From: Escherichia phage HK022
Strand: one strand, 5' to 3'
Sequence record: NC_002166.1
DNA length: 40,751 nt
Each line of letters starts with the position of its first letter. The stretch's first letter is position 1. The notes under the pieces are model-generated. The model saw only the letters and a program-made list of their open reading frames with translations, was not told the origin of the DNA and did not search any database. Below are positions 26,601 through 33,076 of the stretch, one piece after another. A program made the translations under genes and the position numbers.

Positions 26601-27657
26601 GGCTTTGTTGAATAAATCAGATTTCGGGTAAGTCTCCCCCGTAGCGGGTTGTGTTTTCAGGCAATACGCACGCTTTCAGGCATACCTGCTTTCGTCATTT
26701 TGTTCAGCGCTCGTACCAGGGCCATAGCCTCTGCAACCTGACCATCGTAGTCACGCAGTGTCAGTGAACCCCCGAACAGCTGTTTTACCCGGTACATCGC
26801 CGTTTCCGCTATCGAGCGACGGTTGTAATCTGTTGTCCATTTCCACCGCGCATTACTCCCGGTCATTCGCTGATTAGCCACTGCACGGTTACGGTCTGCA
26901 TATTCACCGGGCCAGTAACCCGCACCTTTTCGGGGAGGGATAAGCGCGCTGATTTTCTTACGCCGCAGTTCATCGTGACATAGCCGGGTATCGTAAGCGC
27001 CATCGGCGGCGGCTGACCTGATTTTCCGGTGGGTTTGCCGGATTAACCCGGGGAAGGCCTCTGAGTCCGTAACGTTGTTCAGCGACAGGTCAGCGCAGAT
27101 GATTTCATGTGTTTTACTGTCAACGGCGAGATGCAGCTTACGCCAGATACGGCGGCGTTCCTGGCCATGCTTTTTGACTTTCCACTCGCCTTCACCGAAG
27201 ACCTTCAGCCCGGTGGAATCAATTACCAGGTGTGCGATTTCACCCCGGGTGGGCGTTTTGAAACTGACATTAACCGACTTTGCCCGCCTGCTGACACAGC
27301 TGTAATCCGGGCAGCGTAGCGGAACGTTCATCAGAGAAAAAATGGAATCAATAAAGCCCTGCGCAGCGCGCAGGGTCAGCCTGAATACGCGTTTAATGAC
27401 CAGCACAGTCGTGATGGCAAGGTCAGAATAGCGCTGAGGTCTGCCTCGTGAAGAAGGTGTTGCTGACTCATACCAGGCCTGAATAGCTTCATCATCCAGC
27501 CAGAAAGTTATGGAGCCACGGTTGATGAGGGCTTTATTGTAGGTGGGCCAGTTGGTGATTTTGAACTTTTGCTTTGCCACGGAACGGTCTGCGTTGTCGG
27601 GAAGATACGTGATCTGATCCTTCAACTCAGCAAAAGTTCGATTTATTCAACAAAGCC
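26601..27657 (-). mobile_element. IS903-like insertion sequence (IS5 family), 1057 bp
   Basis: Perfect 18-bp terminal inverted repeats GGCTTTGTTGAATAAATC (26601..26618 and 27640..27657); flanked by 9-bp direct repeat TTGGAATGA (26592..26600 and 27658..27666). Confidence 0.9.
26657..27580 (-). CDS. IS903-type transposase
   Basis: 307 aa from GTG at 27580 (track extends to a TTG at 27625); ends ...MTKAGMPESVRIA as in IS903 transposase. Confidence 0.85.
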   Translation of the reverse strand: MAKQKFKITNWPTYNKALINRGSITFWLDDEAIQAWYESATPSSRGRPQRYSDLAITTVLVIKRVFRLTLRAAQGFIDSIFSLMNVPLRCPDYSCVSRRAKSVNVSFKTPTRGEIAHLVIDSTGLKVFGEGEWKVKKHGQERRRIWRKLHLAVDSKTHEIICADLSLNNVTDSEAFPGLIRQTHRKIRSAAADGAYDTRLCHDELRRKKISALIPPRKGAGYWPGEYADRNRAVANQRMTGSNARWKWTTDYNRRSIAETAMYRVKQLFGGSLTLRDYDGQVAEAMALVRALNKMTKAGMPESVRIA

Positions 27658-27724: not shown

Positions 27725-28063
27725 TTATGACCACTTTTTGTTTGGGTTTCGCTGGTGAGCGTGATTAACAACTCTGTGCATTACATCCTCATATTTTTCA
27801 TCTTCAATTTTTTCGACATCGCGAGGAAATGGTGTTGCTAATGCTTTGTCAACTTTGTCCATTGGGTCTTCATTAATCTTATATTCAGGACCGTCATCTA
27901 TAGCATTAAATCCAGGTGTCACACCGTTTTTTAATGCATATGCTATCCTTTTTTCCCATCTCGCTATTCTCCTCCTGTCTCGAGATGTAAGACCTCTATC
28001 AGATACTTTTCTGTTTTGTCCGCTGTCAGGATTAACATAAATAGTCTTTTTCACCATAAGCAT
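27725..28063 (-). CDS. nun: Nun-like arginine-rich transcription termination factor (N-position protein)
   Basis: 112 aa from first ATG (track start 28069 is TTG); arginine-rich motif RKVSDRGLTSRDRRRIARWEKR; acidic centre; C-terminus ...NPNKKWS; no SD, as for N-like genes. Confidence 0.75.
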   Translation of the reverse strand: MLMVKKTIYVNPDSGQNRKVSDRGLTSRDRRRIARWEKRIAYALKNGVTPGFNAIDDGPEYKINEDPMDKVDKALATPFPRDVEKIEDEKYEDVMHRVVNHAHQRNPNKKWS

Positions 28064-28239
28064 ACCCAATAAGCACCGTACGGTAGTTTACTGTACAATT
28101 TTATTTTTTGGACTGCATGTATTTTGTTTCCTAATGGGTTTGAATCTTTGCAATAAATACTTCTATTTTTTCGAACGACTTCTATATCAAAAAGCTGCTT
28201 TGCTTTTTGTGACTAAAAGCAAAAAAGCCTTCTCGCTAA

Positions 28240-28310
28240 TGAGCAGCATTGCCGTTCATCCTGAACCCGCCGCGCTCCCGACGCATGGTTTAAAGACGCG
28301 CCGTTCGTCT
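28240..28310 (-). promoter_or_regulatory. putL-like cis-acting RNA element
   Basis: GC-rich segment immediately downstream of the predicted pL start, sharing sequence blocks with the element at 29460..29520. Confidence 0.5.
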
Positions 28311-28315
28311 ATGGG

Positions 28316-28344
28316 CTTATGATGTACTTAAAGTTCATTAATGT
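28316..28344 (-). promoter_or_regulatory. candidate pL promoter
   Basis: minus-strand TTGGTA (-35), 17-nt spacer, TATAAG (-10); flanked by operator-like repeats. Confidence 0.4.
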
Positions 28345-28421
28345 AAAGTACCAATAGTACATTTTATGGGTATAAAAAGCTCACTACATCATAAGTTAGT
28401 GAACTTTAAGGAAATTTATTT

Positions 28422-29129
28422 TTATCCGAATCGCTTGTAATCGATTGACTGCCTAATGAGGACTTTGGCTAGAATGTGAAGTTGCTCTTCTTCACCTTCT
28501 TCTATGTACCATCGATCATAAGCGGCATTGTCAGAGATGACGGCAAGCCTGTTCTTTTGCATTTGCAGGCGCTTAACGTGCATTGTTTTCCCGTATACAA
28601 ACACATAAATGCCATCGCCATCAAAACAGGTTATGGATACATCAACAAAGATCTCATCTCCCGGATTGATGGTTCCCTCCATGCTGTCACCGCGAACCGT
28701 GATGACTTTTACGCTTTCCTGTGGCCTTCCATTAAATAAAATTCTTGCCTGCTCGGTCGTATATTCAATTGCTCTTATCTTTTCTATAAATTCATTGGAA
28801 ACCATGGTTCCTGGCCCGGCGCTCGCCTGAACATCCAATACATCAACACGATAATAATCATTTGATCTTGATAGATGATTTACCGTGATACCGTCATCAT
28901 CAGCATAGCCATGCAGATATGCAGCAGTAGTTCCCAGCACCGAAGCCAGAGATTCCATCTTGTCTTTTCTTGGTATTGACTCCCCGTTGAACCATTTACT
29001 AATGGCTTTTGGTGTGACCTTAAGCCTGACAGCTAAATCAGCCTGCCTACCATGCAAAGGTAATCCCGCTTTATCACAGGCCAGCGCAAGCCTCTGCGAG
29101 AAAGTTTCACGCTCTTTCTGTTGAACCAT
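28422..29129 (-). CDS. cI: CI-type repressor (HTH + S24 LexA-like peptidase domain)
   Basis: 235 aa from ATG 29129; N-terminal HTH, Ala-Gly cleavage site (ASAGPG), catalytic Ser in GDSMEG and Lys in HVKRL; longer track ORF would overlap pR and cro. Confidence 0.85.
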   Translation of the reverse strand: MVQQKERETFSQRLALACDKAGLPLHGRQADLAVRLKVTPKAISKWFNGESIPRKDKMESLASVLGTTAAYLHGYADDDGITVNHLSRSNDYYRVDVLDVQASAGPGTMVSNEFIEKIRAIEYTTEQARILFNGRPQESVKVITVRGDSMEGTINPGDEIFVDVSITCFDGDGIYVFVYGKTMHVKRLQMQKNRLAVISDNAAYDRWYIEEGEEEQLHILAKVLIRQSIDYKRFG

Positions 29130-29136
29130 AAGTTCA
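29122..29136. promoter_or_regulatory. operator-like palindrome TGAACCATAAGTTCA (copy 1)
   Basis: 15-bp sequence with perfect TGAAC/GTTCA arms; centre overlaps the cI ATG. Confidence 0.45.
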
Positions 29137-29149
29137 ACTATATTAGGTA

Positions 29150-29178
29150 TTGACTGTACTATCAGTTCCGTCATAATA
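29150..29178 (+). promoter_or_regulatory. candidate pR promoter
   Basis: TTGACT (-35), 16-17 nt spacer, CATAAT/ATAATA (-10), 30 nt upstream of cro ATG. Confidence 0.55.
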
Positions 29179-29193
29179 TGAACCATAAGTTCA
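29179..29193. promoter_or_regulatory. operator-like palindrome TGAACCATAAGTTCA (copy 2)
   Basis: Identical 15-mer directly downstream of the pR -10 element. Confidence 0.45.
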
Positions 29194-29208
29194 CCACAGG
29201 AGAGAAGC

Positions 29209-29439
29209 ATGAACGAAGTTACGTTTGGAGAAGTTATCAAATCCGTTCGAGTTTCTGTTGTGGCTGATGTTTGTGGACTTACGCCAAAAGCCATCTATAA
29301 GTGGCTTGAGCGTGGTTCTCTGCCGCGTACCGAGTTCACTGGTGAAACCGAATATGCGGATAAGATCGCCAAGGCATCAGGCGGCAAGTACTCAGCAGCA
29401 CAGATTCGCCGTATCGGTAAACAGCAGTTTGTTATGTAA
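29209..29439 (+). CDS. cro: Cro-like repressor
   Basis: 76 aa; AGGAGA RBS; HTH (GLTPKAIYKWLERG); divergent from cI across the operator region. Confidence 0.7.
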   Translation: MNEVTFGEVIKSVRVSVVADVCGLTPKAIYKWLERGSLPRTEFTGETEYADKIAKASGGKYSAAQIRRIGKQQFVM

Positions 29440-29459
29440 TAAAAATGTACTTTTAGTAC

Positions 29460-29520
29460 CGAACGGCCCGGTATACGGTCGGGTGCCCGGCGTGGTCAAG
29501 GATGACTGTCAATGGTGCAC
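29460..29520 (+). promoter_or_regulatory. putR-like cis-acting RNA element
   Basis: GC-rich structured segment between cro and cII; shares CGAACGGC, GTCGGG, GCCCGGCG and GGTCAAGGATGACTGTCAATGGTGC-like blocks with 28240..28310. Confidence 0.5.
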
Positions 29521-29560
29521 GATAAAAACCCAAATTATTTACCTATGGAGATAGTAAGAA

Positions 29561-29857
29561 ATGACACAAACAAGTTACAGCAAGCCAACACAGCGAGAAA
29601 TTGATCGCGCTGAAACTGATTTACTCATCAACCTGTCAACGCTTACCCAGCGCGGTCTGGCAAAGATGATTGGCTGTCATGAATCGAAGATAAGCAGAAC
29701 GGACTGGAGATTTATTGCTTCGGTCTTGTGTGCTTTCGGAATGGCATCAGACATCAGTCCGATTAGCAGGGCTTTTAAGTATGCGCTTGATGAAATCACA
29801 AAGAAAAAATCCCCGGCCGCCACCGAGGATTTTAAGCAAATTGATATGCAATTCTGA
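29561..29857 (+). CDS. cII: CII transcriptional activator
   Basis: 98 aa; C-terminus [18 protein letters not shown] parallels lambda CII KKRPAATERSEQIQMEF; GGAGA RBS. Confidence 0.85.
29570..29583 (-). promoter_or_regulatory. candidate CII-binding site of a pRE-like promoter (TTGC-N6-TTGT)
   Basis: minus-strand TTGCTGTAACTTGT within the first codons of cII, same position as the lambda TTGC-N6-TTGC. Confidence 0.35.
29804..29828 (-). terminator. candidate terminator of an oop-like antisense RNA
   Basis: minus-strand CCTCGG-uggcgg-CCGGGG hairpin followed by ATTTTTT, inside the 3' end of cII. Confidence 0.35.
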
Positions 29858-29889
29858 GGGAATTACTGGATCAATCCACAGGAGTAATT

Positions 29890-30036
29890 ATGACAAAACA
29901 ACTCAGTCCTTACCAGGACAAAATTCACAAACACATACTACGTGATCGCTTCCTGTCCAGCTTCAAGCAGCCTGGTCGATTCCGGGCTGAGTTGGAAAAA
30001 GTGAAGCTGATGCAGAAGGAGAAAGGTCATGAGTAA
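29890..30036 (+). CDS. hypothetical small protein (48 aa) between cII and the O-like gene
   Basis: GGAG 5 nt upstream of ATG 29890; stop overlaps the O-like start; basic protein; below track cut-off. Confidence 0.35.
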
Positions 30037-30928
30037 CATATCTAATCTAGCCGAAGCCAGAGAGGCCAGAAGGCTACAACAACCGCATCAAAGCAGCGGT
30101 AAGGGGTATGCCTTGCTGCACCGTAAAATTATGGATGTGCCGTTTTACAAGGATGCAGAAGCAGCGCATCTGTGGGTTCACTTAATCCTCAAAGCAAAGC
30201 ATACGCCTGAGTATGTAATGACTGACGCAGGAGAAATTCTGGTAGGTAGAGGGAAGCTACTTGGCGGTAGAAACTCTCTGGCGTTTGAAACAGGGCTCAA
30301 ACCAGATCGCGTTCAGTACCTGCTTAGAAAGTTCAAAAAACTCGGCATGATTGACTGGGTTTCACACGGTAAATTCTCAGTTTTCTCGGTAGAGAAATAT
30401 GACGATTATCAGTCAAATTTTGTACCAGCAGATTACCAGCAAATTACCACCTCAAAGCCAGCAATATCAATGTCTGTAAGCAATACTGTCCCAGCAGATT
30501 ACCAGCAAATTACCACAGATAAAGAATATAATAATATTATCTCTAATACTGACGTATTAGAGAGTGCCACAGCAGACAAAAAGTCTGACAAGAAAAAACC
30601 TTCCGTTAGCTGTCAGGATGTTGTCGATGCTTACCACGAAATCCTTCCTGAAGCGCCAAGAATCCGCGCACTGAATGACAAGCGTAAAAACCAGATCCGA
30701 ACGTTCTGGCGCAAAGCCGGAGTGATAACCCGCCAGCTTGACGGGCATGGGTTCACGATGCAGGACTGGAGAAATTATTTGAGCTACGTAGGCGAAAATT
30801 GCCGATGGATGTTCGAAGAGCGTCCAAACCATCAACGCGGAACCGTCTGGCACAAAAAGGGATTTGATTTCCTGCTTAACGATAATACCTACCTGAAAGT
30901 TCGTGAGGGTGAACACGATGACCGATAA
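30029..30928 (+). CDS. replication initiator (O-like / P22 gp18-like)
   Basis: 299 aa; contains the iteron array inside its coding sequence (repeated peptide [10 protein letters not shown]); followed by the helicase gene. Confidence 0.75.
30425..30516. repeat. candidate replication origin iterons
   Basis: Two perfect 26-nt direct repeats CCAGCAGATTACCAGCAAATTACCAC (30425..30450 and 30491..30516), each with two 11-nt sub-iterons, followed by an AT-rich stretch (30517..30545). Confidence 0.55.
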
Positions 30929-32435: not shown

Positions 32436-33047
32436 ATGCGAATAAAAAAACTAATTGATCACGATGAGCTTCTGTCAACATTATCATATGACTCAGAAAC
32501 AGGAATATTTAAATGGCTAAAAACAAATTCAGTAGTAAGAGTAAAAGGTAGTATTGCTGGAGGTGTTAGTGGTGGTTATATATGCATTAGCATAAATAAT
32601 GTTTTGTATTATGCGCATAGACTTGCTTGGTTCTATGTATACAAAAAATGGCCTCCTAAGTTTATTGATCATGTAAATGGGAACAGACTTGACAATAGGA
32701 TTTCAAATCTAAGACTGGCAACAGAAGAGCAGAATGCAAGAAACATTGTAGGGAATAGATTAAACACATCCGGTGCAATTGGAGTGTCTTGGTATAAGCC
32801 AACTGGCAGGTGGAAGTCTTATGTTGGTTATAAAAATAAGACAATATCGTTAGGGTATTTCGATAGCAAAGAAGATGCAGCATTCATAGCAGCACTAGCA
32901 AGAAAGAAACTATATGGAACTTATGCGAGTAAAGCACTTAATTGCGAGCATGAGCTTTTATCTCAATTTAATAATGATGAGGATAAACTTGCGGAATATC
33001 TTAAGGAAAAATCTAAAAGGACTCGAAAGCGTGTTAAAAACAGATAA
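32436..33047 (+). CDS. HNH endonuclease with AP2-like DNA-binding domain
   Basis: 203 aa; HNH core (HRLAW...IDHVNGNRLDNRISNLRLAT..EQN) plus AP2-like segment (GVSWYKPTGRWKSYVGYKNKTISLGYF); region markedly AT-rich. Confidence 0.7.
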   Translation: MRIKKLIDHDELLSTLSYDSETGIFKWLKTNSVVRVKGSIAGGVSGGYICISINNVLYYAHRLAWFYVYKKWPPKFIDHVNGNRLDNRISNLRLATEEQNARNIVGNRLNTSGAIGVSWYKPTGRWKSYVGYKNKTISLGYFDSKEDAAFIAALARKKLYGTYASKALNCEHELLSQFNNDEDKLAEYLKEKSKRTRKRVKNR

Positions 33048-33049
33048 AG

Positions 33050-33076
33050 GCCTGCTGGTAATCGCAGGCCTTTTTA
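33050..33076 (+). terminator. rho-independent terminator
   Basis: GGCCTGC-tggtaat-GCAGGCC hairpin plus T5. Confidence 0.65.

Follow-up and report, generated by a model that had tools for sequence, protein, structure and literature searches.

The segment between cro and cII is the putR element of coliphage HK022, a phage with two polymerase-utilisation (put) antiterminator RNAs; we assign this reading a probability of about 97%. Membership of the segment in the put family is established here by sequence identity, map position, a covariation-based secondary structure and the absence of both nut sites and N. The put RNAs of HK022 have been described before (King et al., 1996, Cell 87:893; Banik-Maiti et al., 1997; both as cited in PMC9378689), and the two factor-independent antiterminator RNAs of the phage sit downstream of PL and PR (PMC9378689). 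The original prediction, a tool-less reading of the letters that took the segment for a putR candidate and for the partner of a putL-like element, had the identity right, as borne out by the match to HK022, the annotation of phages O276 and HK75 and the literature (PMC9378689), but its candidate status does not stand: going by the papers cited there, the element has been described since 1996, and putR at this site is already known, a textbook element. A known 60-nt regulatory RNA was thereby located correctly, with coordinates (29460-29520) that are right to within about 4 nt; the finding itself advances no open question.

Sequence identity and map position

The window, i.e., the whole stretch of 40,751 nt that was analyzed, was compared by megablast over positions 28000-30100, where it is 100% identical to X16093 and U02466 over 1623 and 907 bases, respectively, the two partial HK022 records on which the identity across the immunity region is based. 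In the same search, phage O276 is 99.7% and HK75 96.2% identical, and both HK022 records as well as O276 match a 91-nt stretch containing putR at 100% identity. The misc_RNA annotated in O276 as 'putR, antiterminator RNA' corresponds to window positions 29464-29520 and the 'putR site' of HK75 to 29459-29520, and the annotated putL of both phages corresponds to 28241-28303. The element thus agrees, by identity or similarity, with the experimentally defined putR and putL. Rfam 15 holds no put family, and for this reason it is silent at putR: nothing was returned there either at the gathering threshold over the whole window or at E up to 10 over 28100-29700, where the only matches near putL were rsmX and mir-4679, both at chance level.

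The features of the rightward transcript are as follows.

29150-29177, + strand: pR promoter, TTGACT-16-CATAAT (-35/-10), best sigma-70 match of a consensus scan (10/12)
29209-29439, + strand: cro, upstream neighbour; ORF, 100% identical to the annotated cro of U02466 and X16093
29457-29520, + strand: putR antiterminator RNA, whole element; model match 29453-29523, annotation in O276 and HK75
29561-29857, + strand: cII, downstream neighbour; Pfam Phage_CII, E 5e-33, annotated cII in U02466
33046-33073, + strand: candidate intrinsic terminator of the rightward transcript; terminator scan

putR lies inside the 121-nt gap between the 76-aa ORF of cro, for which a Pfam search gave no family, and the 98-aa ORF of cII, starting 18 nt past the cro stop codon (29437-29439) and ending 40 nt before the cII ATG (29561). 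The start at 29457 follows the boundary seen for putL by cryo-EM, an analogy that would assign the first strand of the 5' helix to the element and make the full putR 29457-29520. The pR hexamers are annotated at this same place in O276 and X16093, and a pR start near 29184 would place putR at about +273; in the literature, the distance from the PR start to putR is about 270 nt (PMC9378689). putR is therefore located on the early transcript downstream of pR and in the sense orientation (+), and the ORFs, the promoter and the annotation bear out the earlier placement on the pR transcript, downstream of cro and upstream of cII.

Some 3.5 kb downstream of putR, the hairpin at 33046-33073 has a 10-bp stem, 6 of its pairs being GC, with UUUUUAUUU after it. 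A put-modified polymerase would have to read through this candidate terminator, which is a plausible downstream target of putR. The same hairpin, strong and terminator-like in both directions, forms the end of an ORF at 32436-33073 that encodes an HNH endonuclease with an AP2 domain (203 aa) and comes after the gene of the DnaB-like helicase in the rightward operon. Additionally, a 109-aa ORF with a TTG start (29225-29554, +), in a frame other than that of cro, spans putR; it is probably spurious, since put is conserved in its structure and the indels between copies have lengths that are not multiples of three.

Relation to putL and covariance-model searches

The partner element is located on the leftward transcript.

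28241-28312, - strand: putL; R1 and R2 models, annotation in O276 and HK75

Its 5' end presumes a pL transcript start at 28312; numbering of putL follows the residue identities given in PMC9378689, so that A3-C72 corresponds to 28310-28241. In a pairwise alignment, putR and putL show a mean column identity of 76%, and the blocks GAACGGC, GTCGGG, GGCG, AGGATGA and CAATG are identical in both.

Two covariance models were run. For R2, 20 putL-type sequences from other phages were used, HK022 and all putR-type sequences being excluded, and the model was applied to the whole window with filters off (81.5 kb of strands searched). It matches putL at 28238-28314 (-) with 90.1 bits and putR at 29453-29523 (+) with 45.3 bits (E about 1.3e-9), and its third-best match reaches 7.5 bits (E 2.3), leaving only these two sites in the 40.7-kb window. 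The related structured RNA that had been proposed at 28240-28310, and that lies on the minus strand, is thus recovered by a model that also finds putR. R1, in which all put types are included, gives 71.8 bits for putR and 92.8 bits for putL, and a search with it found no third put copy in the window.

Family members were collected by scanning viral contigs with a pattern of conserved blocks, which yielded at least 120 stretches; these included, the loci listed comprise 64 distinct variants of put-like sites. The collecting pattern fixes GAACGGC, GTCGG, GGCG and CAAT, and the corresponding columns are invariant by construction; therefore, only the free columns are informative, and the covarying pairs described below lie outside the fixed blocks.

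Secondary structure of putR

The pairing of putL seen by cryo-EM (PMC9378689) was transferred onto an alignment of 48 sequences (A2) and pairs were counted. In putL numbering, the transferred fold consists of a pseudoknot-type 5' helix (A3-G7 with C15-U19), stem I (C10-G14 with C30-G34) and the lower and upper parts of stem II. The equivalents in putR are the following.

29457-29461 with 29469-29473, + strand: pseudoknot-type helix, UACCG with CGGUA, equivalent of putL A3-G7/C15-U19
29464-29481, + strand: stem I, CGGCC (29464-29468) with GGUCG (29477-29481), 100% paired across the family
29482, + strand: junction G between the stems, equivalent of putL G35, column invariant in A2
29483-29520, + strand: stem II, covariation and RNAalifold giving the same helices
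29483-29488 with 29514-29520, + strand: lower stem II, GUGCCC with GG-U-GCAC, bulged U at 29516
29494-29498 with 29503-29507, + strand: upper stem II, GGUCA with UGACU, loop AGGA (29499-29502)

Pairing in the four helices reaches 92.9% over the 48 distinct sequences of the family, compared with 26-46% when the partners are slid by 1-3 columns, and 12 of the 21 modelled pairs are changed on both sides. The covariation score of 0.458 was reached by none of 500 shuffles (shuffle mean 0.143), and the window's own putR forms all 21 pairs. With no structure supplied, RNAalifold arrives at stem I and at the lower and upper helices of stem II, and it gives 8 compensatory pairs. The pseudoknot-type helix, whose putL equivalent has been described by cryo-EM (PMC9378689), occupies alignment columns 5-9 and 17-21, and four of its five pairs are changed on both sides across the family. 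Stem I encloses the 3' strand of this helix (CGGUA) together with a 3-nt linker, UAC (29474-29476); it contains one covarying pair (GC in 31 sequences, CG in 16, UG in 1) and appears both in the RNAalifold prediction and in the single-sequence minimum-energy fold. In stem II, pairing amounts to 92.7% for the lower helix, where 5 pairs are changed on both sides, and to 90.8% for the upper helix, where 2 pairs are; in putR, the internal loop GGCGU/GUCAAU separates the two. Covariation thus backs two stem-loops, the second carrying an internal loop and a bulge. The conserved unpaired nucleotides (AA before stem I, the junction G and GGCG...CAAU) are all present in putR, in columns whose invariance in A2 is partly due to construction. 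The junction G is the counterpart of putL G35, which contacts the β' zinc-binding domain (PMC9378689).

Folding energy adds nothing to this picture. The single-sequence folding energy of putR is not better than that of shuffled sequences (z = +0.37 and +0.74), and minimum-energy folding, in which the pseudoknot is not representable, gives no significant result overall (z = +0.37, -0.26 and +0.74). The structural support accordingly comes from homology and covariation. A further apparent covariation in putR-type sequences, between the nucleotide 5' of ACCG and the C or U at 29476, was inconsistent by eye and was dropped.

Differences between putR and putL

putR and putL have in common the AA before stem I, the 5' extension helix, a 5-bp stem I with a G-U pair, the junction G, the bulged U of stem II, the GGCG/CAAU internal loop and a 5-bp upper helix. 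They differ in the loop of stem II, which is AGGA in putR and GGA in putL; in the distance from the promoter, which is about 270 nt for putR whereas putL is located at +1; and in the linker, which has 3 nt in putR and 10 nt in putL (U20-G29, 28293-28284, -). At this point the alignment of the two shows an 11-column gap, putR being a net 7 nt shorter. In putL, the U20-G29 segment comprises the third strand of a triplex (U21-C25) and a bulge (C26-G29) and contains a -10-like sigma-pause motif, and U28 inserts into a β' pocket and is essential, its mutation inactivating putL (PMC9378689). Neither the U21-C25 triplex strand nor the C26-G29 bulge with U28 has a counterpart in putR. putR is thus a member of the put family that falls outside the structural subtype of putL.

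The cryo-EM structure with the E. coli elongation complex is of putL only (Hwang et al., 2022; PMC9378689), and the supplements to that work contain no text on a putR model. Since putR lacks the U20-G29 linker, the details of its contact with the polymerase have to be inferred, and the interface is not explained by the published putL structure. It is tempting to treat putR-type elements, which keep the pseudoknot helix and stems I and II with a 3-nt linker, as a distinct minimal structural subclass of put RNA, a proposal that we consider doubtful and offer tentatively; if it were true, putR would dock or fold at RNA polymerase in a manner for which the putL structure does not account.

Two further observations concern the leftward leader. 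Directly downstream of putL, positions 28189-28233 (-) form an AU-rich hairpin (-17 kcal/mol, z = -2.8) that carries the label 'put. nutL equivalent' in the 1989 HK022 record. The transcript also has a U6 tract (28226-28221) whose end is 21 nt past stem II of putL, a position that matches a backtracked pause reportedly suppressed by putL.

Alternative explanations

One competitor, which the original prediction itself had named as a refutation, is an ordinary lambda-type nutR, in which boxA and a boxB hairpin recruit the N protein and Nus factors. The map position between cro and cII is that of lambda nutR, and the 'put. nutL equivalent' label in the left leader points the same way; however, boxA (CGCTCTTTA, up to 2 mismatches) was not found on the + strand over 29185-29560, nor was a CGCUCUUUA-like boxA present on the transcript, and matches to boxA across the window occur at chance level (119 observed, 114 expected). 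A boxB hairpin with a 5-bp stem and a GA..A pentaloop was likewise absent from both leaders, and there is no cognate N protein, the gene in the position of N being nun.

27725-28069, - strand: nun, in lambda N's position; phmmer match to PDB chain 6ALG_N, E 4.9e-72

The title of that chain is 'Transcription termination factor nun', and Nun is annotated in O276, HK75 and X16093; a Pfam search gave no family for it. HK022 is moreover reported to encode no antitermination factor (PMC9378689). With boxA and boxB absent between the pR start and cII or in the leaders, and Nun in place of N, the nutR reading was rejected and has a vanishingly small probability. Protein-independent antitermination, as originally proposed, is correspondingly supported by the absence of boxA and boxB, by Nun in the place of N and by the literature (PMC9378689). 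A GC-rich hairpin upstream of cII, where lambda has tR1, would also suit a transcription terminator or attenuator, but an intrinsic terminator has its GC-rich hairpin directly before a U-run, and the sequence after stem II is GAUAAAAACCCAAAU (GAUAAAAACCC), not a U-run. The terminator scan found nothing at 29440-29560, and the two-domain architecture and conserved unpaired nucleotides common to putR and putL are not features of terminators. A tR1 analogue was rejected on the missing U-run and the empty scan, and we regard it as exceedingly improbable.

The segment could instead act as DNA, for example as an extended CI operator (OFR) or as a site related to pRE and CII. Such a reading draws on the annotated OFR operator (29445-29459), which abuts and overlaps the 5' end of putR, and on the pE promoter just downstream of it. 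A DNA site would not, however, need the compensatory changes seen in 12 pairs of the helices, the other early operon contains a related copy, encoded on the opposite strand, and putR is conserved beside unrelated cro and cI alleles where an OFR-like sequence is not. Because of the helix compensation and the conservation next to unrelated immunity alleles, a DNA-level site was rejected and merits hardly any credence, and the segment is read as the antiterminator RNA putR.

The operator-like palindrome annotated as OFR in HK75 (ATGTACTTTTAGTAC) extends into the UACCG strand of the putR pseudoknot helix. As RNA, it can fold into the hairpin GUACU-UUU-AGUAC, which would compete with that helix and is the one predicted by the minimum-energy fold; where the immunity region is of another kind, phages have ACCG conserved and not the palindrome. 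In HK022, the overlap of OFR with the DNA encoding the 5' helix strand could couple CI occupancy to the formation of put.

nun is the first gene of the pL operon, downstream of putL, and an N-type antiterminator was not found. Downstream of nun, an IS903-type DDE transposase is inserted in the pL operon (26657-27625, -; Pfam DDE_Tnp_1_5, E 3e-40). It contains a terminator-like hairpin of its own at 27375-27357 and is missing from HK75.

Distribution and paired arrangement

Identity among putR-type copies from Escherichia, Salmonella and Erwinia phages is 94-100%. In Erwinia phage phiEt88 (locus L008, 2505-2573), putR is 94% identical, and the flanking sequence is 49% identical on the cro side and 55-56% on the cII side. 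putR of phiEt88 is thus a sharp island of conservation, and the element is a discrete module that has been exchanged or conserved across host genera. Both types are present in 27 of the viral loci listed, and in all 27 the copies are divergent, 1.15-2.6 kb apart and flank the immunity region. HK022 shows this paired and divergent arrangement, with putL at 28238-28314 (-) and Nun, not an N-type factor, at the N position. Among the matches listed (L012-L131), 83 loci, some of them incomplete, have a putL-type copy alone.

The put family is widespread, and its core measures 53 nt in the putR type, 58-63 nt in the putL type and 50 or 55 nt in PdC23-like elements (L044 and L045). At two loci (L025, 5149, -; L028, 6756, +), a putL-type variant has a wholly different upper stem II (GAGCCAAUGGA[A/C]GGUUC) and also a different lower stem II (CCCCAU/AUGCGGG), with stem I identical to that of the common type. 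putR was also found in 41 of 5426 complete E. coli genomes (RefSeq) at 95-100% identity, two of the places being on plasmids; no annotated feature covers putR in the ten RefSeq matches listed from these 41 genomes. The family alignment made here, with its 64 distinct variants, could seed a curated RNA family.

Proposed mechanism and comparison with known antiterminators

The put RNA is the classic case of a protein-free RNA that turns RNA polymerase termination-resistant. It acts alone and in cis by binding the β' zinc-binding domain at the RNA exit channel (PMC9378689; reviewed in PMC8632103), remains associated with the polymerase over at least 10 kb and counteracts swiveling and pausing (PMC9378689; PMC8632103). 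For HK022, the cis-acting read-through depends on the β' zinc-binding domain, and the polymerase is kept termination-resistant (PMC9378689). By extension, a polymerase starting at pR would transcribe cro and then the putR segment of ~65 nt, and the nascent RNA would fold into two stem-loops, stem I being lengthened by the pseudoknot-type 5' helix and stem II carrying the conserved internal loop and the bulged U. Still bound, the RNA would keep the polymerase non-swiveled and pause-resistant, and intrinsic as well as Rho-dependent terminators would be suppressed over many kilobases. Such read-through would allow cII, the replication genes and the nin/Q region to be expressed without a phage antitermination protein. 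The contact of putR with the polymerase is modelled on that of putL, and its terminator read-through activity is taken from the literature. On these premises, recognizing putR explains early-operon expression in HK022 without an N protein.

The element described here does not differ from the published HK022 putR: the sequence is the same, and O276 and HK75, both near-identical phages, have their putR annotated at this position. The sole addition concerns the 5' boundary, which may be moved out to 29457 if the cryo-EM boundary of putL is taken as a guide. In Gram-positive hosts, the EAR RNA acts in cis and is needed for processive antitermination of a long operon. This RNA of the Bacillales (Irnov and Winkler, 2010, as cited in PMC8632103) resembles putR in function but is not known to be related to it in sequence or structure. 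The single putL-like antiterminator RNA of the HK639 type (King et al., 2011, J Bacteriol, as cited in PMC9378689) has the same family core and was found by the same pattern and models; in the HK639 locus (HM208537), only one copy is annotated and found, in the left operon. Unlike that of putR, its lower stem II (ACCAUA/UAUGG) has no bulged U.

Antitermination at the lambda nut sites requires boxA, boxB, the N protein and Nus factors. putR occupies the same map position as lambda nutR and has the same outcome, processive read-through of early terminators, but here the task falls to the put RNA alone, acting on the β' zinc-binding domain.
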